Shown here piece by piece: positions 786 through 27,712 of a stretch of 33,919 nucleotides of DNA; within the stretch, counting starts at the first letter, position 1, and each line of letters starts with the position of its first letter. The notes under the pieces are model-generated. The model was not told where the DNA came from and made no database searches. It saw only the letters and a list, made by a program, of their open reading frames with translations. The stretch is from an uncultured Verrucomicrobiales bacterium. Its GTDB lineage: Bacteria; Verrucomicrobiota; Verrucomicrobiia; Verrucomicrobiales; DEV007. The translations under genes and the position numbers were made by a program. The DNA lies in the NCBI GenBank assembly GCA_938091905.1, contig CALKOM010000005.1:1-33919 (forward strand), written 5' to 3'.

Positions 786-3700
786 ATGCACCGGCAACTC
801 ATCTCGCTTCTATGCACACTCCTACTCGCGCAGGCCCAGGAGGAGGCCTCAACCTGGAATGTCGACGAGCCTCCCGGCCCCAAGCGGGTGCAGATTATCG
901 ACGTGGACGAAGGCACCTGGATCAGCGTCGACATCAGTCCCGATGGCAAGACGGTTGTCTTCGATTTGTTAGGCAATCTTTACCTCATGCCAATCGCAGG
1001 GTCCGCCAATCCTAACAAAATCACTTCAGGAATGGCTTGGGACATGCAGCCACGTTTCAGTCCTGATGGAAAAACGATCGCTTTCACAAGTGATCGTACG
1101 GGCAAAGCTGGTCACGGAGGCAACAATCTCTGGACAATCCAACCGGATGGCAACGGGCTCACCCAGGTTACCGACGAAGATACCCATTTGGTCAATGGGC
1201 CCACGTGGTCCATGGATGGCGACTACCTGGTCGCGCGAAAGCACTTTACAAGTCGGCGTTCCTTGGGTGCCGGGGAAATGTGGATGTATCACCGGAGCGG
1301 GGTCGAGGGCGATGCCGCAGGCGGTGTGCAGCTGACGAAGAAGCCCAATGAACAGAAGGACGTAAATGAACCGGCCTTTTCACGCGACGGCAAGTTTCTC
1401 TACTACTCTCAAGACTCCACCCCAGGCGACACGTTTGAATACGACAAGGATTCGAACAAACAGATCTACGTCATCAAACGGCTCAACCTCGAGACCGGAG
1501 AAACCATCAATCTGATCTCAGGCCCAGGAGGCGCGTGTCGGCCCACGCCATCTCATGATGGGAAACAGATCGCATTCGTGCGCCGCGTGGGAGCGAAGAC
1601 AGGCCTGCACGTCTTCGATCTTGCCTCTGGCGCCATTCGGTTAGTCAATGATCAGTTAGAACGCGACATGCAAGAGGCCTGGGCCATTCACGGCGTGTAT
1701 CCTGCCTTTGCCTGGACACCCGATGATCAGTCGATCGTCCTGTGGGCACGCGGAAAGATTCGTAAGATCGCCATCGCAGATGGTAGCGAATCCGTCATTC
1801 CATTCCGGATCCAAGATGAACGCCAAGTCGTTGAAGCCCTCCGCACACCGGTCAAGGTTGCAGAAGACACCTTCTCTACCCGCATGCTCCGTTGGGTGCG
1901 AGTATCACCGAACGGCCGCCAAGTCGTCTTCCAAGCGTTGGGCTATCTCTATGTCAGGGACTTACCCAACGGGTCACCACAGCGACTCACGAGTCAGAAT
2001 GATCACTTCGAGTTCTGTCCCAACTTCTCTCGAGATGGCAAGGTACTGGTCTACACCACATGGAATGACAAGACGTTAGGCCAATGTCGAATCCTTGACC
2101 TTTCCACGAAGCAAAGCCGCGTGATCACGTCTCAACCTGGCCATTATCTCGATCCCGTCTTCTCCCCGGATGGCCAGACCATCGTGTTTCGCAAGGCGGG
2201 GGGAGGCTACTTGCGCTCCCATCTATGGTCCCAGGATCCTGGCCTTTACCGCGTCAACCAGTCCGGTGGCGAAGCCGAGCAGGTAAGCAAACGCGGGAAA
2301 CACCCGCAGTTCGCTGAGACCAACGACCGTATCTTCTTTATCGTGTCGTCCCCTGACAAAGACGCGGATCACGTGCGACTCATTTCAACCGACCTTGATG
2401 GCCATGAGGAACAAGAACACTACTCTAGCAAATGGGCAACCGACTTTGCTCTCTCGCCCGATGGGAAACGCATTGCCTTTATCGAGCGATTCAATGTCCA
2501 CCTCGCACCCTTTGTCCGGGCAGGCAAAGCCATCGAGGTTGGGCCAGAAGCCAAGGGCATCCCGGTTACAAAGGTTAGCGAACAGGCCGGCGATTGGATC
2601 CATTTCTCTGCCGATGGCACTCAGCTTCACTGGGCTCTCGGATCTCAGATGCACACCAAGGACCTCAGCGATCTTCAGAAGGCCTCGACCATGCAGGACC
2701 TCTCCTGGGAAGTGCCACATGCCAAGCCGACGACCACTTACGCCCTCACGGGCGCAAAGGTCGTCACGATGTCAGACAAAGGCATTCTCGAAGACGCTTC
2801 CATTCTCGTAGAAGGCAATCGTATTGCGGCAGTCGGCACACGTTCAGAAGTTGAGATTCCTGACACTGCCATACAGATCGATATTGCCGGCCAAGTCATT
2901 CTACCAGGATTCATCGACACGCATGCGCATGGCTCTCAAGCGAGTCAAGGGATCACGCCACAACAGAACTGGGTGGATCTTGCCCGACTGGCCTTTGGAG
3001 TCACCACCGTTCATGACCCATCCAATGACACGAAAGAGATCTTCGCCGCCAGTGAGATGACGCAAGCGGGCGTCATCACCGCACCACGGACGTTCTCCAC
3101 TGGCACCATTCTATATGGCGCAAGGGGAAGTTTCCGAGCAGAGGTGAACACCTTAGAAGATGCCACGTTTCATTTGGAACGCATGCAAGCCGTCGGTGCG
3201 TTCACAGTCAAGAGCTACAATCAACCCCGGCGGGATCAGCGGCAGAAGGTCCTTCAGGCAGCACGTCAGTTAGACATGATGGTCGTGCCCGAAGGCGGCT
3301 CCCTCTTCATGAACAACATGACCATGATCGTCGATGGCCACACCGGGATAGAGCACACGCTTCCTGTGCAGTATGCCTATGATGATGTGATGGATCTCTG
3401 GAGAGGCACGGGCGTTGGCTACACGCCCACGTTGTGTGTCGCTTTCGGAGGAATGTCAGGCGAGATCTACTGGTATCAGGAAGCCGACCTTTGGAAACAT
3501 CCACGCCTCCAGACATTTATCCCTCCACACGTGCTCGAACCACGCTCGCGCCGCCGGGAAACGGCTCCGATTGAAGATTTCAATCACATCAAAGTTGCTA
3601 GCATTACCAAACAACTAATCGACCAAGGGGGTCTCGTCCAGGCAGGTGGTCACGGTCAGCTCAACGGCATTTGTACCCACTGGGAAATGTGGAGCTATGT

Positions 3701-13681: not shown

Positions 13682-14800
13682 TCAACGCGCGGCTTTCTGT
13701 TTGCGAAATCTCCCTTTCGTCTTGCGGGCAAGAGCCTTGAGCATGCGCTCTTCTTCACGGTCGTCCTTGCCGGTGACGTAGTAAATGGTGTGGATTCTGG
13801 GCACTTGGGGCAAGTCTTCGGCAGACTTGTCGATCAATTCCGTCAGCTCCTTCGCCTCAATGACCTCAAACTTTCCCCGCCCCTGGCTGCGCGTGGCGTT
13901 GCCATCGGTGAGCATGAAGGCAACCTCGGCTCGCAGCTTGAGAAGGGCCTCCAGGGCATAGTCATGGCGTGTCCCCCCCGGCCTACCGCCTCGCGGCCCC
14001 GCCTTGTTGTAATCGACCCGGCTTTGAATGTGCTCTTTGGCCAAAGCTCGGTTTGCTTTCGTCGCAGGAACCAGACTTTCCTTCCACAGCCTCGCGCTTC
14101 CCGACCAATGGATGACCCCAAAGAGCGTATTCACACTGAGACTATCAATAAGCTGCGACGCTTCATCTCGAATCGTTTGGAAGGCTTGATCCTTACCCTT
14201 GCGCACAAGCTTGCTCGAGCTGTAATCAAGATCACCTGTCCTCCCAAACATTGATGCGGAGACGTCGATCATGATGACGACGCTACGGGCGTTGTCCTTG
14301 ATATTGAAGAAACTCATCCCACTGCCGGTCCCTTGACCTCCTGCCAAGCCTTTACCAAGCGCCGTTCCCAAACCGGGACTTCCAGAGAGACTGGCTAACT
14401 GATCCGAGATCAGCTCAGATGGATCCAAGGGAATCATTTGATCGACTGGAACTTCAGGCAACTCAGGCAACGCAAACTCTGTCGGCCGAATACTGACTAA
14501 CTTTTGATCAAAGACTGGCTTCGGCGTCATGGCCATGTGCTTTGCCATGTTCATTTTGTGTTCCCGCGTCTGCGCGGGGACGACAATTCGCTTCTCGACC
14601 GTAAACGTAGCTTCTGGTTCTTTGAAATACTCTGCGATCTTGAAGAGACCAAATAGCACCAAACCGATTGCGTGTACGGCAATGCTTCCCAGAACGATCG
14701 TCACGATGAGCCCGCGCTTGCGATTGCCATCACGAGGCTTGGGTTTCTTCGACTTGCGTTTCCGCATGGGAGTTAGGCGGTCTCGATTTGCTTCGATCAT
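13682..14800 (-). CDS. Membrane-anchored vWA domain protein with Pro/Gly-rich linker
   Basis: Basic N-terminus, one TM containing S-x3-H (GSIAVHAIG), then PELPEVP and a Gly-rich linker. MIDAS elements VVIMIDVSASM, GGT and FMLTDG. Confidence 0.8.
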   Translation of the reverse strand: MIEANRDRLTPMRKRKSKKPKPRDGNRKRGLIVTIVLGSIAVHAIGLVLFGLFKIAEYFKEPEATFTVEKRIVVPAQTREHKMNMAKHMAMTPKPVFDQKLVSIRPTEFALPELPEVPVDQMIPLDPSELISDQLASLSGSPGLGTALGKGLAGGQGTGSGMSFFNIKDNARSVVIMIDVSASMFGRTGDLDYSSSKLVRKGKDQAFQTIRDEASQLIDSLSVNTLFGVIHWSGSARLWKESLVPATKANRALAKEHIQSRVDYNKAGPRGGRPGGTRHDYALEALLKLRAEVAFMLTDGNATRSQGRGKFEVIEAKELTELIDKSAEDLPQVPRIHTIYYVTGKDDREEERMLKALARKTKGRFRKQKAAR

Positions 14801-15252
14801 AAGGCAGATTCGTTAGATTGATCAGCAAACGTGACACCGTTGATCCCGGCACGAGCACAGGCGCCGAGAACATCGACGATGCGTTGATGAAGGACGGCAT
14901 CGTTAGGATCTAAGGTGACCATCGCCTTGGACTTACTCAAATCGGCGGCACGTTTGAGCCGCGTGAGAATGCGCACTAATTCAGGAAGCTCGCTCGAGGT
15001 CGGGTCATCAATGGTCATGTCATTGAGTATGATCTGCCCATTAGCCTCGATTTTAATGCGTTGTTCATCAGGCAGATCAACAGCTTCCTCTTGGCTTATG
15101 CTCCCTGGCAACGTCATCTTGATATCGCTCTCTGGCTGAGTCGGTTTCGCCGTGACCATGAAGAATACCAGCAAGAGAAACGTCATATCTATCATAGGAC
15201 CCATCTGCATCTCAACGAGATCCATTCGGCGTTGGCGGCGGCGTATGCTCAT
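14797..15252 (-). CDS. exbD: Biopolymer transporter ExbD/TolR family
   Basis: MGPMIDMTFLLLVFFMVT TM with the conserved Asp. ATG 15252 overlaps the upstream stop (ATGA). Confidence 0.9.
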   Translation of the reverse strand: MSIRRRQRRMDLVEMQMGPMIDMTFLLLVFFMVTAKPTQPESDIKMTLPGSISQEEAVDLPDEQRIKIEANGQIILNDMTIDDPTSSELPELVRILTRLKRAADLSKSKAMVTLDPNDAVLHQRIVDVLGACARAGINGVTFADQSNESAL

Positions 15253-15662
15253 GACTCGGACCGATAACTCCCTATGATGATGTCTAACGCACCTGCTTCG
15301 GTGCACATGCGGAGCAGCTCTTTCAACTTGCGAGCCGGCGTCTTCTTATCGGCTCGGATGTAAACGCGCAAGGGTGGAAAGTCTTTGAACTGCCGCTTGA
15401 GGTGAAACATGACCTTCTCTTTCGATGCCAGATCGTTCTTAAGATAGTAGTCGCCCACATCGTCGATGTTGATGATATCGCGATTGCTCATGTCACGCGG
15501 CGTCTTCGCTGTCAGAGTCACCGGCAGATCAATATCGAGCTTCACCTCTTCCTTGGACATCTTGAAGGTGACCATGAAGAAGATGAGCAAGAGAAACGTC
15601 ATATCGATCATCGGCGTGATCTGAAAGGTCATCTGACCGTGCTGTCGCTTCCGCCGCCTCAT
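15249..15662 (-). CDS. exbD: Biopolymer transporter ExbD/TolR family
   Basis: ITPMIDMTFLLLIFFMVT, IDLP and VYIRADKK motifs. Confidence 0.92.
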   Translation of the reverse strand: MRRRKRQHGQMTFQITPMIDMTFLLLIFFMVTFKMSKEEVKLDIDLPVTLTAKTPRDMSNRDIINIDDVGDYYLKNDLASKEKVMFHLKRQFKDFPPLRVYIRADKKTPARKLKELLRMCTEAGALDIIIGSYRSES

Positions 15663-15667
15663 GGTAT

Positions 15668-16429
15668 TTAGTCTTCGGACTGCCCGGACAATTTAACTTC
15701 GCCACTCAGAACATCGATGAGGAAACTTGTCTGCTTTTGAATAGAACTGATGATCGCCGTAAGCCGATCCCGAAAGAAGAAGTAGAAGAACATCGATGGA
15801 ATACCTACTAACAAGCCTCCTGCTGTGGTCACCATGGCTTTGCGGATACCGCCAGCCAATTGAGAGGGTTCGGAATTGGCCTGCTCCAACTGCTGAAACG
15901 ACTCGATCATCCCCACCACCGTTCCCAGGAGACCGATCATGGGGGCCAAGGTGGCGAAGACGTTGAGGTAGTTGACCCAGAGCATGTAACGGGTCTCTTC
16001 CTGATCAAGTGCTTCACCAGCCGCCTCCATCATGGACTCCTTGTTCGCGCGATCTCGATCAAAGTTCACCTTTAGCAAAGCCGAGGACAGGACTTCCGAG
16101 TAGCTGCTCGGATTCGACTGACAGAGTTCGTAGGCATGCGTCACATCGCGTTTCTCCATGTACTTTGTCATGTTCTCTGCCAGCGCTACTGGGGCCATCT
16201 TCTTCGTATTAACCTGAGTGAAACAGTAAACGGCCACTGCTATGGTGCCGACCGAACAGAGAAGCAGCACGTGCATCATCCAGCCACCGTCTTGGTAGTA
16301 ATCTAGCAGTGAAACCGTACGCTCTGGCACGGGTTCCGCCACTTCTACATCCGCCTCTTGAGCAGAGACCTGAAGTAGAAAGCAGCCCAACAGGCAGAGA
16401 ATAAGGAGGAGGGAATGTCGTCGATTCAT
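15668..16429 (-). CDS. exbB: MotA/TolQ/ExbB proton channel family protein
   Basis: Signal peptide; GGWMM; ATLAPMIGLLGTVVGMIESF; LAGGIRKAMVTTAGGLLVGIP. Confidence 0.92.
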   Translation of the reverse strand: MNRRHSLLLILCLLGCFLLQVSAQEADVEVAEPVPERTVSLLDYYQDGGWMMHVLLLCSVGTIAVAVYCFTQVNTKKMAPVALAENMTKYMEKRDVTHAYELCQSNPSSYSEVLSSALLKVNFDRDRANKESMMEAAGEALDQEETRYMLWVNYLNVFATLAPMIGLLGTVVGMIESFQQLEQANSEPSQLAGGIRKAMVTTAGGLLVGIPSMFFYFFFRDRLTAIISSIQKQTSFLIDVLSGEVKLSGQSED

Positions 16430-17361
16430 GATTTCGGGGAAGCCTCATCGAGTAACTGCCTAGCAAGGCCGCTCTCATTGGAGTCAGGGTAAAGTTTCAG
16501 GAGATCCTCGGCAGTAGACTTGGCCTTGTCTGGCATCTTCCCGTGGAGATAAACCTCGCATACCTGCCAGAGCCCACTCGCAGCCGGTTCGCGAAGCGCA
16601 CCTTGGAAGAGGCTGCCATAGAGAAAGTGATCGATGGCTTCATGAAACAGGGCATGCCGTTGAGAGAAGATCTCGTCATCCTCCATCCACCGGGGGTGGG
16701 CTTCGACGAGTTCTTTCAGCGCGTCGAACGCCGCATAACCTAAAACCTGCCGAGCTTCCACCGTGACTTGGGGATCGGTCGTCTCCTCAAGCAATCGTGT
16801 TGCCGCCTTCTTGGCCTCTTCCGCTCGCCCCGTGAGGACAAGTGCTTTGAGTCGTCGTTGCTGAGCTCGACTACGCCTAACGTCATCCCAATCAGCTGAA
16901 ATGATCTTATCGAGCAAGAGCAGCGCTGCCCTGGCGTGGTCCTCGCCACTCGCAAGCCATTGCTCAGCTAACAAGATTCCATAACTACCAGCTGGACTAT
17001 TCGCCTCTGCCAAATAGCTCTCATGCCTCACCCAAAGACGACGAAGCTTCTCGACATCGGCTGATCTCTTTCCTTCAACAATGGCCAAGTTCTCCTCTGT
17101 TTGCTCAAAGTCGATGAAGGCAACGTCTTTACGAGGAAGCCGCTTGCAAGATTCGCCACGGCCCCTAGGGCCATCGATGATGACGTTAAACTCGACCCAT
17201 TCCTCGTTAGTCGAAAGGGTCTTTCCATCGAAGGAATCGCCAGAATGGAAATGAACGACGTCTTGGGCGTGGGCGCACGTTGCAATCAGTGCTAGCATAT
17301 AGAATACGATCCGACACCTACTGGAAGCCAGTACGACATTGCGCTTTGCCAGAGATCTCAT
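16426..17361 (-). CDS. Exported protein with N-terminal beta domain and C-terminal TPR-like repeats
   Basis: Signal-like segment ending AHA-QDVV; helical repeats; C-terminal LLKLYPDS typical of CpoB/YbgF-type TPRs. Overlaps both neighbours by 4 nt. Confidence 0.7.
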   Translation of the reverse strand: MRSLAKRNVVLASSRCRIVFYMLALIATCAHAQDVVHFHSGDSFDGKTLSTNEEWVEFNVIIDGPRGRGESCKRLPRKDVAFIDFEQTEENLAIVEGKRSADVEKLRRLWVRHESYLAEANSPAGSYGILLAEQWLASGEDHARAALLLLDKIISADWDDVRRSRAQQRRLKALVLTGRAEEAKKAATRLLEETTDPQVTVEARQVLGYAAFDALKELVEAHPRWMEDDEIFSQRHALFHEAIDHFLYGSLFQGALREPAASGLWQVCEVYLHGKMPDKAKSTAEDLLKLYPDSNESGLARQLLDEASPKS

Positions 17362-20120
17362 CCGCTTACTCGTGCCTTGGCCAAGGCGTACTCCGGATAA
17401 GTTTTCAGGTCTTCGCGCGCGACAAACTCTCGGTAGACTTCTTGCGCCTTCTCGGCTTCACCTAATTTCTCTAACAATTGTCCACGCGACCAGTAGGCCG
17501 TCGAGACCAAGGGCGCATAGCGCCCATAGACTAAATAGACGCGCTCGAAGTAGGCCAGGGCTTTGTTCTCCTCTTTGCCCTCGGCCAACCATTGGCCAAT
17601 GCGCATGAGAGCTTCTGCTTTCTGACCGCTAGTAACTGATTTCTCAGCTAACAGACCATCTAGCGTCTTAAGACCAGCGCCACGATCTCCGGCAAGGTCC
17701 TGACAAGAGGCTTTGACCAAGAGCAGCTGACCTAAAGGAACGACGCCACTTTGTCGACGTTCAACGCGAGAGAAATGACCCAGCGCTTTCGCATAATCTC
17801 TCGCCCGCATTGCTTCTTCGCCCAGGCCAACCTCGGCTCGATCACGCTCAAGCGCCTTCGGATGCCACTTGACAATGTCTTGATAGATAGTTGCCGCTTC
17901 TGGCATCGCTTCCGTCTGCGCAAAGGCGTCTGCCACATCCACCAACAAACGCGCGCTATGAATCTCGGGATTCAGTTCCGGCGCCATCTGCCGCAAGAAC
18001 ACGGCCGCCTGCGCAGGTGAACGCCCTTGGAGAAGCATGCCTCTGGCCCACAGGCAGCACATCGCATAAGTCGCCTGTTTCGATTCCAAGGCCTCGACAC
18101 GCTTCGACTCCCACGCCTTGCTCAATGTCTCCCGCTCATCGCTATCATAGAGTTTCTGCAAGCCCAAGATCAAGTCCAGCACCGTAGACTTCTCAGCATC
18201 ATCACCATACTCGTCCAAGGCTTTCCAATAAGCCAACCGGGCTCCCTCGAGGTCGCCTGCGTGCTGCTTCAACCATGCAAGGTGATGCAAAGCTTCGGGC
18301 AAGCGAGCACTTTTAGGGTAGGCCTCGACGAAGTTCTGGTAATGAGCCGCCATGTCTTCGTAGCGCTCACTCAGTTTCAGTGCTTTGCCTGACTTGAAAT
18401 AGCCTTCTTCAAAAAAGCGAGTCGATTCGGGAGACACAGAAGCATATGCAGCCATTCCGTCCTCCAATTCACCTTGGGCAAAGTAGGCATCGCCTAGCAG
18501 AAGCTTAGCCTCATCTGCATAGGAGCTATCAACATGGTTTTTGATAAACGCTGTCAGACTTATAATTCCTTGATCGTACAAGGCCAACGCGTGCTCCGAG
18601 AAAGCAATTCGAAACGTGGCATCGACGTGGTAGTAGCCCTGCGGGTGTTTCTTAAGTAGACCTTGCATTAACGACAGACAGCGCTCGTGCTCGCCGGCAA
18701 AGGAATGAGCCATGCCTTCCCAATACTTCGCGCCTTCAACCAGTGCTAGTTTGTCAGGAAAGGACACAGGCACACCTCGAAACACCTGGATCGCTTCAGG
18801 ATAACGATCCAACTGAAGCAAACAAATCCCCCGCATGAAGGACGCGTTCGAAGCCATCTCCCCCTTGGGATAACGCTGCAGGCAATCGTTAAAAACCTCG
18901 AGTGCCGCATCATAGTTCCGCGCGCTCTGCCACGCCTGCCCTTTCATGAACAATACGGTGGCGGAACTCTTCGCCTCATAACCAAAGCGCTTCAGATACC
19001 TATCTGAAGAAGCAGCGGCACGATCCCACCTCGACTCCTGCATCCAACATTGGACCAGATTGACCGAAGCGCCTTCGACGATCTCGTTTAGCTCCATCTC
19101 AGCTAGCATGCCTTCCATGATCAGCGCGCCCTGCCGATACCGCTGCAGCCCTAGGTAAGCACTCGCAAGCCGCATCCGTAAGGCTTCATTGTAATGCTCC
19201 ACCTTGGAAAAGTGCTCCAGCTCACGGGTGATCCGTGTGAGAACGCCATCTAACTGAAAGACCAAAGCATCGGCATTTCCACGCGCTTTCAACATGCGCA
19301 GACGTCTCTCCAACCGCTCCTGCCGACTCGTCTGGAGATCGAGCAACTGCTGCTGAGGCCAGACATAGTGAAAGCAACGGATCGCTTCATAGTATTGTTC
19401 TTCATCGAGCAATCGCGAGCCTAGCTGCAGAATGAGCGACTGAAGCCCAATAATCTGCACAAACTGATCAAACTTCTCCGACGCACGCAGTGTTAGCGCA
19501 ACGGCCTCTTCCAATTCATCTGTTTGTATGAGCGCGTGAAGCTGCAAGGTGATCATGCGCGCCGCAGCCTCAGGAGCATTCGCTTCAAGCTCCTCAACCC
19601 GAGACCGGAAGAAGGCGATAGCATCAGGATACTGTTCCTGAATCAAATACCCTGTCCCAAAGAGAATGGCGGCTTCGATCCGGCGCGGATCCGTCTTTGG
19701 CGCGTGTTTGTAATAGGTCCCAAAGGATACTTGTGCTTTTGCATGGTCAGCTGCCTGCAACTGACACACCCCTTGCCAAAACGTGAGTTCAAGTCGCATC
19801 GCTTGATCGACTCCCTCCGTTCCTAGCACTTGCTTGATGACGCCCAACGCTTCACCAAACTCACGTATGCGAATCAAACAGATGGCAAAGAGCGGCCGCA
19901 CAGCGTGAACGGCTTCCTGCGCTTCCCCGGAATCGCCATAGTCCGTGAGGAAGGTTCCAAAGTGTGCCTGCGCCGTCTCGTAGTCACGCTGACCGTAGGC
20001 TGCTTGCCCGGCTTGGACTAACTCAAGCGCCGTCATCGGCTCGCTCTTTTCCACCGCTCTACTCTGCGGGGCGAAGAGCGCCAGAGAGAGCATGAACAAC
20101 AATGTGAGAAGAAGCCTCAT
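17358..20120 (-). CDS. Large exported tetratricopeptide-repeat protein (BamD/CpoB-like repeats)
   Basis: Signal peptide (MRLLLTLLFMLSLALFAP). Many TPR units ending in RYPKG, SFPDK, KHPQG, AYPKS. Start is ATG 20120 or GTG 20141. Confidence 0.85.
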   Translation of the reverse strand: MRLLLTLLFMLSLALFAPQSRAVEKSEPMTALELVQAGQAAYGQRDYETAQAHFGTFLTDYGDSGEAQEAVHAVRPLFAICLIRIREFGEALGVIKQVLGTEGVDQAMRLELTFWQGVCQLQAADHAKAQVSFGTYYKHAPKTDPRRIEAAILFGTGYLIQEQYPDAIAFFRSRVEELEANAPEAAARMITLQLHALIQTDELEEAVALTLRASEKFDQFVQIIGLQSLILQLGSRLLDEEQYYEAIRCFHYVWPQQQLLDLQTSRQERLERRLRMLKARGNADALVFQLDGVLTRITRELEHFSKVEHYNEALRMRLASAYLGLQRYRQGALIMEGMLAEMELNEIVEGASVNLVQCWMQESRWDRAAASSDRYLKRFGYEAKSSATVLFMKGQAWQSARNYDAALEVFNDCLQRYPKGEMASNASFMRGICLLQLDRYPEAIQVFRGVPVSFPDKLALVEGAKYWEGMAHSFAGEHERCLSLMQGLLKKHPQGYYHVDATFRIAFSEHALALYDQGIISLTAFIKNHVDSSYADEAKLLLGDAYFAQGELEDGMAAYASVSPESTRFFEEGYFKSGKALKLSERYEDMAAHYQNFVEAYPKSARLPEALHHLAWLKQHAGDLEGARLAYWKALDEYGDDAEKSTVLDLILGLQKLYDSDERETLSKAWESKRVEALESKQATYAMCCLWARGMLLQGRSPAQAAVFLRQMAPELNPEIHSARLLVDVADAFAQTEAMPEAATIYQDIVKWHPKALERDRAEVGLGEEAMRARDYAKALGHFSRVERRQSGVVPLGQLLLVKASCQDLAGDRGAGLKTLDGLLAEKSVTSGQKAEALMRIGQWLAEGKEENKALAYFERVYLVYGRYAPLVSTAYWSRGQLLEKLGEAEKAQEVYREFVAREDLKTYPEYALAKARVSG

Positions 20121-20231
20121 ACGATTTGAGGTGATCCTCACACAGACTCGAAGATGGCGTCAACTCGCCATTCTTGGATTCTTACAATGGTCGGCGACTA
20201 TCACCCATTCGACTCCGGCAGGATGCCAGAG

Positions 20232-21137
20232 CTACCTTTCAGCTTGGCCTCGCTGTGTGGGACTGAGCCAGTTCAGTGCTTTCTTGGGATCGACGCGGCA
20301 CCAAGCGTTCACTTTGGTTGCCTGCGCCCCATTGAGATCAAGCTTAGCAAAGACAGTGCCCTGAAGTTGTCGTCGCTGGTCGCTCACTGGCGCTTTCCCA
20401 TAGTCTTTCGAAAAACGCACGGTCTTGGCACCCTTCACACTCGCGGATCGCTTCTCCAGGTAGACTTGTTCTGCACAACTTAACTTGCTTGCTTTGCTAA
20501 TTAAACTCCTCAACGTCAACCGGCTTGGGTCGAAGGTAACTAAGGTAACCTCATGCCCATCGATAAACCCTGCTTCGGTTTCTAACACACCATCTAACTG
20601 TCCTAGCTTCATTTCGCCGGTCCAGAAACAATGCATGGCTAGAGCGACTTGAGATTTCCGGGAAGTGTCGAGATGATCATCGGCGAGAGCTTGCAAGTAA
20701 TTCGGCACAGGACGCTTTGCCGCCTTGAGAGAGGCGAGTATGCGGCGAGCCAACGGTCCTGTTGCCCACACCTTGTCTTGCCGCGGAATGAGATCCTTCC
20801 CCTTGGCGGTCAGGAAACGAACGACTTGGTAATTCCAAGCAGATTCACCAAACCGCTTGAGAATCTTGGCATCAGCACCAGGGCGGTTGTTGACAATCAG
20901 CAGTGGCACGAAGGCCTCCTCTATCGCGTCGACGAGTAGAGGTTCTGTAAGGACGTTCTGACCGAACGTCTTGCAACCAGCTCAACCCGGTACTTCTTGA
21001 AACAGGGCAAAGATCGGTTTGCTGGATTTCTTGGCAACTGCGACTGCTCTATCGTAGTCGCGCTTCCACGTGACGTTGCCAACCTCCACCGCGTTTCCTG
21101 AGTTCGGTGAATTTGCGGATTGCAGTCCTTTCCCCAT
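20232..21137 (-). CDS. Selenoprotein: thioredoxin-like UxxC domain (VPGU-type) fused to an MsrA-like domain; UGA at 20984-20982 read as Sec
   Basis: The frame of ORF 20232..20909 continues upstream: EVGNVTWKRDYDRAVAVAKKSSKPIFALFQEVPG-TGA-AGCKTFGQNVLTEPLLVDAIEEAFVPLL. The TGA sits at the first Cys position of a Trx CxxC and is followed by a SECIS. The C-terminal half has ALAMHCFWTGE, LDGVLETEAGF and GHEVTLVTFDP (MsrA-like). Start is uncertain (ATG 21137, GTG 21143 or ATA 21182). Confidence 0.88.
20946..20975 (-). promoter_or_regulatory. Bacterial SECIS element
   Basis: mRNA reads UGA GCUGGUUGCAA GACGUUC GGUCA GAACGUC CUUACA. This gives a perfect 7-bp stem with a G-initiated GGUCA loop starting 18 nt after the UGA, plus an imperfect lower stem. 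Confidence 0.85.
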
Positions 21138-21209
21138 GGCCACAAAGGAAACCGCGACGATGATGTAGTCTTGCCAGCGTATGCGAATGAGATGCTTGGT
21201 TATCCTGTT

Positions 21210-21800
21210 CTATTCCCGAGTCCGCTGGCGCAGAGCTTCGAAGAGGGTAACGCCTGTGGCAACAGAGACATTGAGACAATCCACCCGACAATTCAGTGCC
21301 ATCGGAATAGACACAAGGAAATCGCAGTGCTCCCTCGTGAGGCGACGTAGGCCAGTCCCTTCCGCTCCCATGACGATGCCCATCGGGCCTTTGAGATCCA
21401 CATCGTAGAGTGTTTGAGTCGCTTCATCTGCCGTTCCCAACAACCACACGCCCATTTCCTTCACGCGGGCCAAGCACCGCGAGAGATTGGTCACTTGAAC
21501 GAATGGCGTGTGCTCTGTCGCCCCGCAGGCCACCTTGCGAGCTGCTTCCGTTAGGCCGGCAGACTTGTCCTTCGGCACAATCACCGCAAGGACGCCAGCG
21601 GCATCTGCTGAACGCATGCAAGCGCCAAGGTTATGAGGGTCCTGGACACAGTCTAGCACAAGCAGCAGAGGTGCCTCTGCCTGAGCAAGCTGCTCGTAGA
21701 ATTCATCCTCCGTCCAGCAGAGGGCGCTTTTATCGAGGCTTGCGTGCCGGTTAGCCCGTTCCTTGCGTTCGTTCAAAGCGCGCGTCGGACGTCTAGCCAT
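21210..21800 (-). CDS. rlmB: SpoU/TrmH-family 2'-O-ribose RNA methyltransferase, RlmB-like (short form)
   Basis: LLVLDCVQDPHNLGACMRSADAAG, KVACGA, VMGAEGTGLR, LNVSVATGVTLFE. At 196 aa it has little room for the N-terminal RNA-binding domain. Confidence 0.8.
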   Translation of the reverse strand: MARRPTRALNERKERANRHASLDKSALCWTEDEFYEQLAQAEAPLLLVLDCVQDPHNLGACMRSADAAGVLAVIVPKDKSAGLTEAARKVACGATEHTPFVQVTNLSRCLARVKEMGVWLLGTADEATQTLYDVDLKGPMGIVMGAEGTGLRRLTREHCDFLVSIPMALNCRVDCLNVSVATGVTLFEALRQRTRE

Positions 21801-23558: not shown

Positions 23559-23633
23559 GCCCTCAGCGGTCGCGACGATTCCTAGAGAATGGGTTCCATT
23601 ACAGAAGAGAATCTAGTACATCAGCTTTCTTCT

Positions 23634-26261
23634 ATGGCCTCCTACATCCGCATTGCTCTTGCACTCAGCCTCGCTCTCGCCGCCGCTTCAGGCGAGGAAC
23701 TCCGGAGCCGGATCGGTCTGATGGCCCTGTATGATTTCAATGAGAGCCAGGGTACCGACATCAAAGACGTGGCTGGCGTCGGCGCTCCACTCGACCTTGA
23801 GATCGAGAAGATCACCCAGGTGACCCGCCAGAAGGGTGCTCTCAAGGTCACGGCCAGGGCCACGATCAAGTCAAAGAAACCAGCAGCTCGGTTCCAAGCG
23901 GCTGTGAAGCGCACCGGCGAACTCACTCTCGAAACCTGGGTAGAACCCGCCAATCTCAAGCAGAGCGGCCCTGCGCGTATTGTCACCCTGTCCAAAGATG
24001 GCAGCAACCGGAACCTAACCTTGGGCCAGGAGGGCAATCAATTCTCCGTTCGGATGCGGACGAAGAAGACCAGCGCTAACGGCATTCCATCCGTCGATTC
24101 TGACAAAGGCACCGTCAAGACAGCTCTGACACACGTCGTCTACACCCGCGACCGCAGTGGCCGAACCCACCTCTACCTTAACGGCGAGAAAGTAGAAGAG
24201 AAAACCATCGATGGCAGCACGAGCAATTGGGCACGGGATTACCATCTCGGCTTGGCCAATGAGATGAGCAATGATCGCCCCTGGCTAGGAACGTTTCACT
24301 TGGTCGCACTCTATAGCCGCGACCTCCTTCCCCACGAAGTGCGCAATCACTTTCAGTTAGGCCCCGATGCAGAAACAGCACCCGCTCCTGAGCTGGTCAA
24401 AGTCGATCCCAATGAGCAACTTTTCGACGAAGCCATCGCGCCGATCTTCGCCAAGCATTGTCTCGAGTGTCACGACGCCGCGACGAACAAAGGGAAGCTG
24501 GATTTGTCTAGCAAAGTGGCCGCTACAAAGGGGGGCTCTGAAGGCACGGCCATCGAAGCTGGTCACGCCGATCAAAGTCTCTTGTGGGACGTGGTCCAAG
24601 CAGACGAGATGCCTCATGATCGCGAGCCTCTTTCTCCCACCGAGAAGGCCTTGCTCAAAGAATGGATCGATGGCGGGGCAAAGTGGGCCTCGCCGACGAT
24701 CGATCCCCTCGCCCACAAGCGTGACCGGCGGGCCACCGAGAACTGGGTACGCAGACTGACGCTTTCCGAATACATCGATACCGTGCGTAGCTCAGTCGGC
24801 GTCGATATCAGGAAGGAAGCGACCGAACTCCTTCCGAAAGATCTGCGGGCGGATGGCTTCAACAACACGGCCTACAACTTGGGCGTCGATTTCAAACACA
24901 TCGAATCCTATGCCGAGCTAGCTAGCATCATCGTCAGTCGAATGGACATGAAGGCATTCACCAAGCGTTTTAATCGGCGCATTCAGTTCACAGATAAGGC
25001 CATGGCCACGCTTCTACAGCGGATGGGCACCTGGCTCTTGCGAGGCCCGTTGGAAGATCACGAGATCATCGCCTACCGTGGTATTTCCACCACTGTCGCC
25101 AGTGGAGGTGGCTCCTACGAGGAAGCCGCCGCTTACATCGTGGAAGCCATGCTGCAATCTCCCCGCTTCATTTACCAAGTGGAGAATCAACGCGGTGACG
25201 GCCAAGTATGGCCTGTCAGCGAGTATGAGTTAGCGTCGCGCTTGAGCTACATGCTTTGGGGCAGCTCACCTGACAAGACACTCATGGACGGGGCAGAGAA
25301 AGGGCGCCTCTATGACCGGGTCGAAGTCGAGAAAGAAGTCGACCGCATGCTCGACGATCCTCGCACCATCACCCGTTCGCTCGAGTTCGCCAGCCAGTGG
25401 TTGAATCTTGGACGACTACAAAACCTGCGACCCAACGCAGACAAGTTCCCCAGCTGGGATCCAGCCCTAGCAGAAGACATGAAAGCCGAGACCCTAGCCT
25501 TCTTTAAAGAAGTCGTCTGGGAAAACGGCCGTCCTCTCGGCGATCTTTTGAACGCTCCCTACACCTTCACCACACCACGACTTGCGAAGCACTACAATCT
25601 TGCCGTTACGATTGACAATACGCCGAACAGTCTCCAACGCGTTAACTTGGAAAAAGACAAAGCCCGCGGCGGACTTCTCACGCATGGCAGCATCCTCACG
25701 ATCGGCGGCGATGAAGCCTCCACCGTAACACGTGGTCTCTTCGTCCTCCATGACCTTCTACGCAGCGGAGTAAATGATCCCCCGCCTGGGGTGGACACCA
25801 CCCCCGTACCATCCGAACCCGACCGCACCCAGCGCTCCATTGCGGAAGAGCGTATCCAAAGCAAGTCCTGTGGAGGCTGTCATCAGAAGTTTGAGCCTCT
25901 CGCCTTTGGCATGAGCAAATTTGACGGACTTGGCACGTTCTTGGAGAAAGATCACTTTGGCAATGCACTCCAAGACGATGGCGAGATCCTCTTCCCGGGC
26001 GATTCGAAAGCCATTCCCTTCCAGTCGTCAGCCGAGCTGATGGACTTGTTAGCCAAAAGTTCCTTGGTGCAAGAGAATCTCACGTGGAAAGTCGCCCAGT
26101 TTGCCCTCGGTCGACCGCTGGTCGGCAGCGACACCCCACACATCAAGGAGATCCATGCCCAAGCGCAGAAAGAGGGTGGCACCTACAAAGCCATTCTCAA
26201 AGCCATCGCTCTCAGCGACTACATCCAGAGCACACGCACTGAAGCCACAAACGAATCCTAA
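23634..26261 (+). CDS. Exported LamG + planctomycete cytochrome c + DUF1587/DUF1592/DUF1588-type multidomain protein
   Basis: Signal peptide from ATG 23634. LamG motifs (ALYDF, LTLETWV, THVVYT, LYLNG). Heme motifs CLECH and CGGCH. Also VRRLTLSEY, MLQSPRFIY, ELASRLSYMLW and RGGLLTHGSIL. Confidence 0.88.
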   Translation: MASYIRIALALSLALAAASGEELRSRIGLMALYDFNESQGTDIKDVAGVGAPLDLEIEKITQVTRQKGALKVTARATIKSKKPAARFQAAVKRTGELTLETWVEPANLKQSGPARIVTLSKDGSNRNLTLGQEGNQFSVRMRTKKTSANGIPSVDSDKGTVKTALTHVVYTRDRSGRTHLYLNGEKVEEKTIDGSTSNWARDYHLGLANEMSNDRPWLGTFHLVALYSRDLLPHEVRNHFQLGPDAETAPAPELVKVDPNEQLFDEAIAPIFAKHCLECHDAATNKGKLDLSSKVAATKGGSEGTAIEAGHADQSLLWDVVQADEMPHDREPLSPTEKALLKEWIDGGAKWASPTIDPLAHKRDRRATENWVRRLTLSEYIDTVRSSVGVDIRKEATELLPKDLRADGFNNTAYNLGVDFKHIESYAELASIIVSRMDMKAFTKRFNRRIQFTDKAMATLLQRMGTWLLRGPLEDHEIIAYRGISTTVASGGGSYEEAAAYIVEAMLQSPRFIYQVENQRGDGQVWPVSEYELASRLSYMLWGSSPDKTLMDGAEKGRLYDRVEVEKEVDRMLDDPRTITRSLEFASQWLNLGRLQNLRPNADKFPSWDPALAEDMKAETLAFFKEVVWENGRPLGDLLNAPYTFTTPRLAKHYNLAVTIDNTPNSLQRVNLEKDKARGGLLTHGSILTIGGDEASTVTRGLFVLHDLLRSGVNDPPPGVDTTPVPSEPDRTQRSIAEERIQSKSCGGCHQKFEPLAFGMSKFDGLGTFLEKDHFGNALQDDGEILFPGDSKAIPFQSSAELMDLLAKSSLVQENLTWKVAQFALGRPLVGSDTPHIKEIHAQAQKEGGTYKAILKAIALSDYIQSTRTEATNES

Positions 26262-26275
26262 CTGAACGCTAAATC

Positions 26276-27712
26276 ATGAGCAAATCCTCACTCAATCGCC
26301 GCGCCTTTCTCCGAGGAATGGGAGGCATCACTGTAGGCATGCCCTTCCTAGAAGAGATGCTGGCCACCTCGGCGTCCGCAGCTGCCGCAACCGCGGCCAA
26401 TGCAAGTGCCGTGCCGGTCCGGGCGTTTAACGTCTTCTTTGGACTAGGAATTCCGTCGCCGCTACAGAGTGAGGGCTATGATGGCGTGTTAGAACCTCTC
26501 AAGGCACTCAAGGATCAACTCCTCATCATGCGGAGTCTCGATCACGTGCGCTGTGACGAATCCGGTATCAATGCCCACTTCGATGGCGCCTCGGCAGCCT
26601 TCACTGCCGAACCACCCAGTGGCGAAGCCAAGTCAGGTGGCCCATCCATTGATCAAGTCATCCGGCACTCACATTATGCTGACGGGCTCCCTCCCGGCAT
26701 GGTCCCCACGCTCGTCGGCGGCACCTTCTTTCGACGCAGCAGGGTCAGTCGCTATGTCCACAGCTACAACTTGGACGGCACCGTGGCTGCAACCATGCAA
26801 GAGCGTCCACGCGACCTCTTTGATCGCGTCTTTGGCAAGCTCGACGTTGCTGACAACGATGTGAGGAAAGAACGCCTCAAGCGGAGCGTGCTCGATTCCG
26901 TCGTCGATCAGTACAAGTTTTACACGGGGGCACATTCGCCCTTGGGCAATGTGTCCAAAGGGCGGATCAAAGATCATCTCGATCGCGTGCGTGAGTTTGA
27001 GCAACGGGCGTACGCTATGAAGGAACACGCCGCCGATGCGCCCGATCTTCCACCCGAGTCCAAGCTCCTCCACGGCGGCTCAGCTGATCCCGGCGGCGAA
27101 GGCATCGACATCACGCTAGACGAACTCACGACGGAGTGGCGGCTCATGGCAGACCTTTACGCACTCGCGATTCAGTGCGACCGCGTCCGGTTCGGCTCTC
27201 TCACCTTCCTTGCTGCGGGAGAACGCATCCGTCTCACTGGCGACTACATGTTCAATGGCAAGAAGCGTTTCGAGTTTGATGACGCCAATCAGCTCCGAGC
27301 CTCTGGCTCTGCAGGTTGTAGCCATGAGTGGTGGCATCGGTTCAACCCGAAGAAGGACAATAAACAGCTTCGCATGCACGCCCACATGAAGATGCGCGAA
27401 GTGGCTTACTTCCTCCAACGCCTCAACGAAGACGAGACACGTGAAGCCAATGGAAAGACTTTGTTAGAAAACGCCCTAATAACCGTGTCGACAGAGTCAG
27501 GCGATGGCCGCCACAACGACGTCAAACGCGAACTCTCCGGCGTTTTCCATGCTGTCAGTGGTGCCAATGGTCGCTTCAAAACGGGTGAGATCGTCGACGT
27601 AAAGAGCGAAGGTATCGATGTCTACAATACGATGCTGGGTGCCATGGACGCCAAGCGGCACATCGGCCCAGCCGACCGCGAGAAGCGTCCTGTGGATAGC
27701 ATCCGGGCTTGA
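26276..27712 (+). CDS. DUF1552 domain protein, Tat-exported
   Basis: LNRRAFLRGMGG...MPFLEEM, PSIDQVI, PRDLFDRVFG, SVLDSV, HLDRVREFE, EANGKTLLEN. This is the usual position downstream of a DUF1592 gene. Confidence 0.85.
   Translation: MSKSSLNRRAFLRGMGGITVGMPFLEEMLATSASAAAATAANASAVPVRAFNVFFGLGIPSPLQSEGYDGVLEPLKALKDQLLIMRSLDHVRCDESGINAHFDGASAAFTAEPPSGEAKSGGPSIDQVIRHSHYADGLPPGMVPTLVGGTFFRRSRVSRYVHSYNLDGTVAATMQERPRDLFDRVFGKLDVADNDVRKERLKRSVLDSVVDQYKFYTGAHSPLGNVSKGRIKDHLDRVREFEQRAYAMKEHAADAPDLPPESKLLHGGSADPGGEGIDITLDELTTEWRLMADLYALAIQCDRVRFGSLTFLAAGERIRLTGDYMFNGKKRFEFDDANQLRASGSAGCSHEWWHRFNPKKDNKQLRMHAHMKMREVAYFLQRLNEDETREANGKTLLENALITVSTESGDGRHNDVKRELSGVFHAVSGANGRFKTGEIVDVKSEGIDVYNTMLGAMDAKRHIGPADREKRPVDSIRA

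Follow-up and report, generated by a model that had tools for sequence, protein, structure and literature searches.

A Verrucomicrobiales gene with an in-frame TGA and its probable product, a selenocysteine-containing fusion of thioredoxin-like and MsrA-fold domains

Neisseria PilB consists of a thioredoxin (Trx)-like domain combined with MsrA and MsrB domains, is located outside the cytoplasm and is reduced through DsbD. In MsrA, a loop tyrosine binds the sulfoxide oxygen. Bacterial SECIS elements (bSECIS) are stem-loops that lie shortly downstream of the UGA and contain a G or GU in the apical loop; in the E. coli fdhF-type SECIS, the hairpin is located within the coding sequence soon after the UGA and presents GGU(C) in a small apical loop.

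Selenoproteins with a VPGU motif are represented among the NCBI annotation models by NF041383 (“VPGUxxT family thioredoxin-like (seleno)protein, type 2”), and the selenoprotein table of a 2026 review (PMC13188914) includes the same family as “hypothetical protein OS_HP5”. The review attributes the family to a 2007 paper, the main text of which does not contain the name “OS_HP5”. As far as these sources go, the family was known beforehand, both from the NCBI models and from a published selenoprotein catalogue, and Haloferula homologues already bear the NF041383 family name at NCBI. In the parts of the literature covered, the names VPGUxxT and NF041383 occur solely as a table entry in a review, and nothing relevant, by title or abstract, was found on an exported Trx-MsrA protein containing selenocysteine (Sec).

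The gene described here lies on the minus strand of the window, by which we mean the whole analysed stretch of 33,919 nucleotides from the genome of an uncultured Verrucomicrobiales bacterium. The original prediction for this locus pointed to a VPGUxxT family, and the read-through protein indeed matches NF041383 over its full length: it scores 373.6 bits, where the cut-off is 275, and aligns to model positions 1-285 of 287, and the six-frame genome search gives 366.6 bits. The sister model for type 1 (NF041382) reaches 130.3 bits, short of its cut-off of 350, and its match is confined to the N-terminal half. Given the full NF041383 match and the presence of the family in the 2026 review, the gene is a new member of a known family, with which it shares the VPG-U motif, the Sec/Cys column and the two-domain layout. 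In contrast to the family name VPGUxxT, the motif in the window protein is VPG-U-A-G-C, with Cys rather than Thr as the +3 residue; the pattern across the NF041383-family representatives is VPG-C-x-[T/G]-C. The family encompasses 1076 representative clusters at E <= 0.001 and 296 at E <= 1e-30, in records labelled Verrucomicrobiota, Planctomycetota, Bacteroidota, Myxococcota and others, mostly from marine metagenomes, and is rare in the phylum sample (5 of 401 genomes, the source genome included). No ORF family within 3 kb is common to more than 4 of the 48 loci compared, and the neighbours in the window (SpoU methylase, LptA-like, NuoB/C, TPR, ExbB and ExbD genes) display no functional link to the gene.

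The reading frame and its TGA codon

The region 21182-20232 of the minus strand is one gene, and the two ORFs called within it are parts of one redox protein. The gene runs for 316 codons from the conserved start position to its TAG stop (20234-20232). Between that stop and the TAG of the upstream gene (21212-21210), positions 21209 to 20235 form an open frame interrupted by a single TGA at 20984-20982, and the six-frame genome search likewise returned an open frame of 325 codons with one TGA. The codons around the TGA read CCG GGT TGA GCT GGT TGC, that is, P-G-U-A-G-C, within the context FQEVPG-U-AGC. The prediction had described exactly such a frame, with one in-frame TGA and no other stop, and the strings that it quoted (LFQEVPG, HCFWTG, GHEV and KAPVSDQ) are all found in the translation. 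Residues are numbered here according to P0001, which begins 5 codons upstream of 21182, such that the putative Sec is residue 72 (U72; 20982-20984) and the second residue of the UxxC motif is Cys75 (20973-20975).

Under table 11, the gene is cut into ORFs of 53 aa (20982-21143) and 225 aa (20232-20909), the split that the prediction ascribed to the ORF caller. The TGA could be a true stop, resulting from a nonsense mutation or an assembly error, in which case the locus would encode a 53-aa leftover and a 225-aa protein, or be a pseudogene. Table 11 ORF calling yields exactly these two pieces, public gene callers split the nearest relatives in the same manner (the closest database proteins, with 95, 85, 79 and 67% identity, are C-terminal pieces of 225-234 aa), and Rfam at gathering thresholds returns no matches in the window. 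The 225-aa product, however, would start from the GTG at 20909, within the Trx-like domain, and conservation across the family extends upstream of the TGA. (ARAGORN finds no tRNA in the window.)

The homologues address the same question. Across 65 homologous loci, the column aligned with the TGA is TGT or TGC in 50, as anticipated if Cys replaces Sec, and TGA in the other 15, all of which come from Verrucomicrobiota and Planctomycetota records and are each accompanied by a hairpin. The motif FQE[VI]PG[UC]xxC is present in 47 loci (the window itself, 4 genomes from the same phylum and 42 of the 47 loci that the species-genome scan supplied), 9 of them with TGA and 38 with TGT/TGC; among the metagenome loci, 18 of 20 have the motif, 6 with TGA and 12 with Cys. 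Some of the rows counted are duplicates (over the segment, L029 is identical to L056 and L084 to L085), and L078 nearly reproduces the window. Because the column is Cys or TGA in all 65 loci and both of its flanks are conserved across the family, the TGA pattern is, on the evidence of these alignments, beyond chance. The TGA is not an assembly error, because contigs from runs X4, X5 and X7, which belong to three other studies, are identical to the window at 20982-20984.

Downstream of the TGA, the minus strand of positions 20952-20970 can form a SECIS-like hairpin, GACGUUC-GGUCA-GAACGUC, with a perfect 7-bp stem and a loop that begins 18 nt past the UGA, in agreement with the bSECIS features outlined above. 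A short hairpin with GGU in the loop is found shortly 3' of the TGA in all 15 TGA forms, in two classes. Among the 9 TGA forms with the motif, 8 have a GGUC(A/G) loop in a constant position, closed by a stem of at least 5 bp, which in 7 of the 9 measures 7-8 bp; in the 38 Cys forms, stems reach 4 bp at most, and the window-type (class-I) hairpin does not occur. In the second class, represented in the remaining TGA forms L061, L080, L082, L084, L085 and L092, an AGGU loop is located 7 nt further on. As read off the printed sequences, the stems vary on both sides (GACGUUC/GAACGUC, ACGGUUU/AAACCGU, ACAGUUC/GAACUGU), and the 3' arm occurs in two registers, with 4-nt and 5-nt loops. The median local minimum free energy is -7.9 kcal/mol in the TGA forms versus -2.1 kcal/mol in the Cys forms (Mann-Whitney p = 3.7e-5, a value that overstates the case because kin are not independent). 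The two groups are separated by this local hairpin test only: the 54-nt energies are alike (means -12.6 vs -12.4, p = 0.96), and the whole-region fold of the window is ordinary (z = -0.67 for 66 nt). The hairpin resembles the fdhF-type SECIS in its position within the coding sequence and in its small GGU(C) loop, but differs from it in matching no Rfam family and in belonging to one of two positional classes within a single protein family. The 7-bp GGUCA-loop hairpin probably directs UGA decoding.

The Sec machinery of the genome is complete, as the proposal of a Sec-using organism would require: selA (489.2 bits, cut-off 267.9), selB (284.8, cut-off 242.25), selD (266.8, cut-off 125) and tRNA-Sec, the selC product (68.5, cut-off 47; identified by ARAGORN as tRNA-SeC with anticodon TCA), are all found above their cut-offs. 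An exported Sec-MsrA with a GUFWG motif is encoded elsewhere in the genome, so that Sec is in use. With the Cys and TGA forms of the column, the hairpin in each of the TGA loci, the agreement among assemblies and the complete machinery all against it, the true-stop or assembly-error reading is close to refuted, and the apparent stop codon is almost certainly decoded as selenocysteine. Taken jointly, Sec decoding and NF041383 membership are, from the sequence comparisons, very highly probable.

The two fused domains and their relatives

The fold model of the read-through protein (pLDDT 91.7, pTM 0.85) consists of a Thioredoxin_7/DsbD-gamma-like domain (residues 41-162, 20712-21077; Pfam PF13899, 36.5 bits against a cut-off of 27) followed by an MsrA-fold domain (residues 180-321, 20235-20660). 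The best structural matches of residues 41-162 are the Bacteroides protein 3f9u (VIA Z 15.5, rmsd 1.9 over 119 residues to 3f9u_A), DsbD-gamma and DsbH (Z 12-13.5 for the latter two), with a CxxC-type site in the same place; according to the secondary structure of the model, the UxxC motif is positioned at the expected helix start of the thioredoxin fold. The window protein differs from these structural matches, with which it shares 14-17% identity, in that its first Cys is replaced by Sec and that the domain is fused to an MsrA fold.

The structures nearest to the C-terminal half are those of the Clostridium oremlandii MsrA, a natural selenoprotein (4lwl, 4u66, 4lwj). The MsrA resemblance noticed in the prediction extends to the entire fold: model residues 177/180-321 superimpose on 4lwl with Z 15.1 and rmsd 2.5 over 139 residues, and on 4u66_A with Z 14.9 and rmsd 2.2 over 140 residues, and the profile of the domain matches MsrA among PDB sequences with E 1.6e-8. 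The catalytic Cys of the x-C-F-W-x-x-E motif and the active-site Glu align with those of the C. oremlandii enzyme, the identity being about 16-17%. The differences from MsrA are as follows: a 13-residue loop is deleted in the window protein, the domain is fused and the protein is predicted to be exported, and Sec resides in the fused Trx-like domain rather than at the MsrA catalytic position.

The MsrA domain of PilB (3bqh, 3bqf) is also among the fold and sequence matches, and the overall arrangement, an N-terminal thioredoxin-fold domain ahead of an MsrA-fold domain in a protein that is extracytoplasmic (as predicted here), resembles that of PilB. Unlike PilB, the window protein ends with the MsrA-fold domain, no MsrB/SelR domain being present among the Pfam or NCBIfam matches; furthermore, its Trx-like domain is of the Thioredoxin_7/DsbD-gamma type, Sec takes the place of Cys, and the MsrA domain is degenerate.

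Conservation was assessed in the query together with 150 representatives. Two positions, one per domain, are near-universally Cys: column 72 (140 of 142 representatives) and Cys190 (20628-20630; 143 of 144), which lies within M-H-C-F-W-T-G-E and aligns with the MsrA catalytic Cys/Sec. Cys75, by comparison, is retained in 124 of 142 representatives, the other 18 having V, S, N or A instead, and Cys241 is semi-conserved (100 of 137). The residue after Cys190 is Phe or Tyr in 144 of 144 and the next core residue is Trp in 136 of 144, and Glu216 (20550-20552), which aligns with the Glu of the MsrA D-H-S-E motif, is Glu in 136 of 142. In the profile alignment, the Tyr-bearing MsrA loop that precedes this Glu coincides with the 13-residue deletion, and the alignment ends before the QYRS-type motif and the region of the C-terminal resolving Cys. 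Pfam PMSR (PF01625) scores 23.7 bits, equal to its cut-off, for residues 184-216 only (model positions 2-34 of 153), and the MsrA model TIGR00401 gives 17.8 bits on the read-through protein, far below its cut-off of 108.1. The model and alignments thus depict an MsrA fold that is complete but stripped-down, with the catalytic Cys-Phe-Trp and Glu kept and the Tyr loop lost.

Because the 13-residue Tyr loop is absent, activity on methionine sulfoxide is uncertain. The protein might instead be a Sec oxidoreductase whose MsrA-fold domain does not reduce methionine sulfoxide; the substrate of that domain may be protein sulfenates or a different oxidised compound of sulfur or selenium, or the domain may serve only as a Cys-bearing partner or sensor for the Trx-like domain. 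Apart from the missing loop, the unaligned QYRS-type motif and the low equivalog scores, this reading is favoured by the residues R127 and R139 in the N-terminal half and E195, which are invariant in the family and have no counterpart in MsrA, and by the presence in the genome of two ordinary genes for exported MsrA, a Sec form and a Cys form. The retention of the MsrA core and of the full fold is, on the contrary, what would be expected if sulfoxide chemistry persists, and we regard a function other than methionine sulfoxide reduction as possible, with the balance on the doubtful side.

Leader, start codon and alleles

The export that the prediction considered possible finds support in the N-terminal sequences. 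A putative signal peptide or membrane anchor, I/M-RWQDYIIVAVSFVAMGKGLQSA, is located at 21114-21182; it is a hydrophobic stretch that lacks a lipobox Cys. Among family proteins whose N-terminus extends far enough, hydrophobic leaders occur in 103 of 115 and in 129 of 131, which makes export likely for the family.

The start assigned in the prediction, 21182, stands as the conserved start position, but the codon there (21180-21182) is ATA, not ATG, a point that the prediction missed. ATA is found in the window and in the X7 contig, and ATG in the contigs of X4, X5 and X15, in L078 (98% identical) and in L062 (78%); X15 is an RNA-library run, with contigs over 20668-20813 and 21152-21300 only, and is not proof of transcription. 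Given that the first canonical in-frame start is the GTG at 21143, translation might begin there, and the product would then be a cytoplasmic Sec protein that has no leader and relies on cytoplasmic thioredoxin reductase, not DsbD, for its recycling. Such a start is very unlikely, considering that the stretch ahead of 21143 is conserved in L062 and L078 and has the form of a typical leader, that family members almost always possess a leader and that, as read from the sequence, nothing resembling a Shine-Dalgarno sequence precedes this GTG.

The substitution of ATA for ATG, together with changes at conserved positions, also underlies another view, namely, that the Sec codon and the family are real whereas the copy in the source genome is a weakly expressed or decaying allele that yields little or no exported protein. 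From the canonical starts that follow, GTG at 21143 and ATG at 21137, the product would lack the leader, and the latter codon is CTG in X5 and L078. The window and L078 differ in the ORF by 7 non-synonymous and 2 synonymous changes, and across the four run contigs 10 of 13 differences are non-synonymous; the window allele departs from the family majority in G59S, P119S (Pro in 133 of 150) and R267G (Arg in 91 of 150). However, these counts are small, and in the flanking TPR gene, too, non-synonymous changes (3) outnumber synonymous ones (1); L078 itself has the substitution R46C where 129 of 150 representatives have Arg, so that the excess of amino acid changes is not restricted to the window allele, and Ser119 recurs in 3 other representatives. 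Moreover, the gene contains neither a frameshift nor a further stop, its TGA and perfect 7-bp hairpin are preserved, and the presence of ATA in two assemblies implies that the allele circulates. The table 11 initiators include ATA and also ATT, which occurs nearby at 21188, so that some initiation is possible. The window copy may be poorly expressed or under relaxed constraint, judging from these differences; a decaying or barely expressed allele nonetheless appears unlikely to us.

Possible chemistry and implications

The preferred explanation is that a single Sec-decoded gene encodes an exported two-domain protein that functions as a self-recycling reductase, an account that we favour as a whole, if without great confidence. 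In its most specific form, that of a periplasmic sulfoxide reductase, it is plausible. The protein would act outside the cytoplasm, where Cys190 would attack a sulfoxide, either Met-S-sulfoxide or a smaller methyl sulfoxide, and become a sulfenic acid. This would be resolved by the selenolate of U72 in the fused Trx-like domain, possibly but not necessarily via the semi-conserved Cys241, with the formation of a Se-S bond, a relay that would require U72 and Cys190 to come into proximity. Cys75 would then free Cys190, and the resulting U72-C75 selenenylsulfide would be re-reduced by a membrane electron transporter of the DsbD type. The genome has one such gene, for a 674-aa protein with DsbD_N and DsbD_TM domains on contig C171, the product of which is a possible reductant. 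We attach somewhat less than even credence to sulfoxide-reductase chemistry combined with intramolecular recycling.

A further extension of this scheme is a long shot. The family could constitute a new class of extracytoplasmic reductases with a composite active site, in which the minimal MsrA core (Cys-Phe/Tyr-Trp plus Glu, with no Tyr loop) would be served directly by the Sec or Cys of the fused DsbD-gamma-like domain as the resolving residue for the sulfenate. The second Cys of CxxC, which 18 of 142 representatives do without, would be dispensable. The substrate would not be Met-sulfoxide in proteins but some oxidised sulfur or selenium compound that is common in sea water, such as a small methyl sulfoxide. 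As a separate matter, the polymorphism between ATG and ATA starts would act as a natural switch for the expression of a protein that is costly in selenium.

The TGA gene leaves the knowledge of Sec decoding unchanged. In annotation, the two called pieces should be fused into one selenoprotein gene, and the same correction is applicable to the public fragments of 225-234 aa. For the family, the almost invariable combination of one Cys or Sec in the Trx-like domain with the catalytic Cys of a simplified MsrA fold provides a concrete hypothesis that is cheap to test.

The in-frame TGA and its protein family

The gene under study (21182-20232, minus strand) contains a TGA at 20984-20982, within the minus-strand sequence CCG GGT TGA GCT GGT TGC. 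When TGA is translated as selenocysteine (Sec, U; residue 72), the frame runs open, with no other stops, from just past the stop of the SpoU-methylase gene upstream (TAG, 21212-21210) to its own TAG at 20234-20232, and the product contains ...KPIFALFQEVPG-U-AGCKTFGQNVL.... Standard ORF calling yields two pieces, of 53 aa and 225 aa; the minus-strand sequence, the frame translation and the ORF calls thus bear out the original prediction of a gene split by the ORF caller at a single in-frame TGA. The suggested link to VPGUxxT thioredoxin-like (seleno)proteins also holds: the read-through protein scores 373.6 bits (cut-off 275) against NCBIfam NF041383 ('VPGUxxT family thioredoxin-like (seleno)protein, type 2'), in a match that covers 285 of the 287 model positions.

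This large family is represented by 1211 matches in a 90%-clustered protein set and by 1076 representative clusters at E <= 0.001, 296 of them at E <= 1e-30. The closest database entries (95-67% identity) are fragments of 225-234 aa, which are Sec forms cut by gene callers; the full-length entries, of ~300-312 aa, are Cys forms. Two proteins, P0188 (722 aa) and P0216 (636 aa), are roughly double the normal length; the family match lies within the first 245-315 residues, and they may be fused forms with an additional C-terminal part. The selenoprotein table of a 2026 review (PMC13188914), where the family appears as 'hypothetical protein OS_HP5', credits it to a 2007 paper, in the main text of which a search for 'OS_HP5' found nothing; a 2022 review has an OS_HP5 entry without domain or motif. 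A literature search by titles and abstracts found no functional study of the family.

Evidence for a Sec codon

In a six-frame search of 401 genomes of the same phylum with the family model, the gene was found in 5, including the source genome; in the remaining four, the codon in the Sec column is TGT or TGC. Further loci came from scans of one genome per species (47) and of metagenomes (20). Homologues have either Cys or TGA at this column, as the original prediction called for checking: among the 65 sequences with a locatable FQE[VI]PG[UC] motif, 50 have a Cys codon and 15 have TGA, the locus counts including duplicate or near-copy rows (L029 = L056, L084 = L085, and L078, which is close to the window). 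The motif was not locatable in L065, L068 and L070, which have Cys at the Sec column and a differing continuation, in L075, L089 and L097, which are cut, and in L076, a TGA form that looks frameshifted. This last copy (L076:4001-4397), from the record of a complete Rubritalea chromosome, has VPR-U and leaves the family frame ~25 codons on; either it is a pseudogene with a frameshift, or long-read sequencing introduced an error.

The source assembly (6.19 Mb, 95% complete) encodes the Sec machinery on which the original prediction depended: selA, selB, selD and selC, the tRNA-Sec with anticodon TCA, are all above curated cut-offs. The other threat to that prediction, that the TGA is an assembly error, is ruled out by contigs of sequencing runs X4, X5 and X7, from three other studies, which are identical at 20982-20984.

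Shortly beyond the UGA lies a SECIS-like hairpin, GACGUUC-GGUCA-GAACGUC (20970-20952, minus strand), with a perfect 7-bp stem and a loop that starts 18 nt past the UGA. In a first set of 47 loci with the motif, a stem of at least 5 bp occurs at exactly that position in 8 of the 9 TGA forms (7-8 bp in 7 of 9); in the 38 Cys forms, no stem exceeds 4 bp. The median local MFE is -7.9 kcal/mol for TGA forms versus -2.1 for Cys forms (p = 3.7e-5, an overstated significance since the relatives are non-independent). Between loci, the stems vary by paired changes, and the GGUC of the loop is constant. SelB recognises hairpins of this kind, with G or GU in the loop. An Rfam search returned no model matching the SECIS-like hairpin. 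TGA forms without the first hairpin (L061, L080, L082, L084, L085, L092) have a second one 7 nt further downstream, for example, GGCCAGC-AGGU-GUUGGCC. Two positional classes, with GGUC(A/G) and AGGU loops, respectively, are therefore present in one protein family, and the encoded residues track the class (FGQ-x-V vs GQQVL).

On four independent lines, namely the homologues, the SECIS-like element, the Sec machinery and the other assemblies, the TGA is almost certainly a Sec codon, as predicted from sequence.

The source genome has a second Sec gene, encoding an exported MsrA with a G-U-F-W-G active site (in-frame TGA) and a hydrophobic N-terminal leader (L023, contig C146, ~2818-3234, minus strand), as well as an MsrA of the Cys type whose leader is lipoprotein-like (L024, contig C53). 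Its SelD is a fused form: within a 793-aa ORF (L001:416-2797, minus strand, contig C162), SelD makes up the C-terminal part, behind an N-terminal half that consists of a pyridine nucleotide-disulphide oxidoreductase domain (Pyr_redox_2, 107 bits).

Domain architecture and a possible recycling mechanism

Pfam detects Thioredoxin_7 (36.5 bits) and, borderline, PMSR (residues 184-216) in the read-through protein. In a confident AlphaFold2 model built from a 46-sequence alignment (pLDDT 91.7, pTM 0.85), residues 41-162 match DsbD-gamma-type thioredoxin domains (3f9u_A, Z 15.5, rmsd 1.9, 119 residues; DsbH and DsbD-gamma, Z 12-13.5). Residues 180-321 match MsrA over its entire fold (C. oremlandii MsrA, Z 15.1/14.9, rmsd 2.5/2.2, 139/140 residues), in agreement with the proposed MsrA-like C-terminal domain, the profile of which alone finds MsrA among PDB sequences at E 1.6e-8. 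The profile alignment places Cys190 (M-H-C-F-W-T-G-E) on the MsrA catalytic Cys/Sec and Glu216 on the active-site Glu; a 13-residue deletion removes the Tyr-containing loop of MsrA. The domain is homologous to MsrA, yet is no regular MsrA, because the read-through protein scores 17.8 bits against TIGR00401 (MsrA; cut-off 108.1). The missing Tyr loop and the two ordinary exported MsrA genes already in the source genome argue against plain MsrA function.

In an alignment of 150 representatives and the query, the Sec column is Cys in 140/142 and Cys190 is kept in 143/144, as are Trp192 (136/144), Glu195 (133/144), Glu216 (136/142), Arg127 (146/150) and Arg139 (143/150). Cys75, the second Cys of UxxC, is present in 124/142 (the other 18 have V, S, N or A) and Cys241 in 100/137. 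Three distant members without the second Cys read VPGCSTV, VPGCSIA and VPGCSTA. Such members (L065, L068, L070, also L093 and L094, with VPGCSTS as a fourth form) keep the first Cys and an intact MHCFWTGE, and are labelled Myxococcales, Thermodesulfobacteriota, Dadabacteria or metagenome contigs.

The near-invariance of column 72 and Cys190 implies one indispensable Cys per domain, the main reason to consider a putative exchange of redox bonds between domains. Possible export, as originally suggested, gains from the signal-peptide-like N-terminus, (I/M)RWQDYIIVAVSFVAMGKGLQSA, and from a hydrophobic stretch that a simple hydropathy rule finds in 103/115 and 129/131 family proteins with enough N-terminus, some of these leaders having a lipobox-like Cys. 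We infer a periplasmic self-recycling reductase, in which a sulfoxide would oxidise Cys190, U72 would resolve the sulfenate, perhaps via Cys241, Cys75 would free Cys190, and a DsbD-type transporter would re-reduce the thioredoxin-like site. A 674-aa DsbD_N + DsbD_TM protein encoded elsewhere in the source genome could be the electron source. The same recycling logic is known from Neisseria PilB.

A search for conserved gene context found no neighbouring ORF family common to more than 4 of 48 loci, and the window neighbours are unrelated in function (SpoU methylase, LptA-like, NuoB/C, TPR, ExbB, ExbD). Directly downstream (13682-20141, minus strand) are genes for a 927-aa TPR protein, a 311-aa ORF, ExbB, two ExbDs and a 372-aa ORF, probably one operon, given that successive ORFs overlap or almost abut; the 311-aa and 372-aa ORFs match no Pfam family, and the set is not conserved beside the selenoprotein gene in other genomes. 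At 23589-27712 (plus strand) lies a Planctomycetes/Verrucomicrobia-type pair, PSCyt1-PSD3-PSD5-PSD4-PSCyt3-PSD2 with Laminin_G_3 (890 aa) and then DUF1552/HXXSHH (478 aa).

The start codon and the state of this allele

The conserved start (21182-21180, minus strand) is ATA in the source genome, a detail that the original prediction missed. ATA also occurs in the X7 contig; the X4, X5 and X15 contigs have ATG, as do L078, which is 98% identical, and L062, which is 78% identical and follows the same gene. This copy might be poorly translated or under relaxed constraint; 7 of the 9 sites that differ from L078 in the ORF are amino-acid-changing, as are 10 of 13 differences across the four run contigs, and the allele differs from most of the family at G59S, P119S (where 133/150 have Pro) and R267G. 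However, the differences are few, L078 has an odd change of its own (R46C), the adjacent TPR gene likewise has 3 non-synonymous changes of 4, and the gene is intact apart from the start codon and the substitutions, so that we consider such decay unlikely. Correctly called, this is a real hidden selenoprotein gene that extends a known, uncharacterised family by one member; its domain architecture and start-codon polymorphism give it modest interest.
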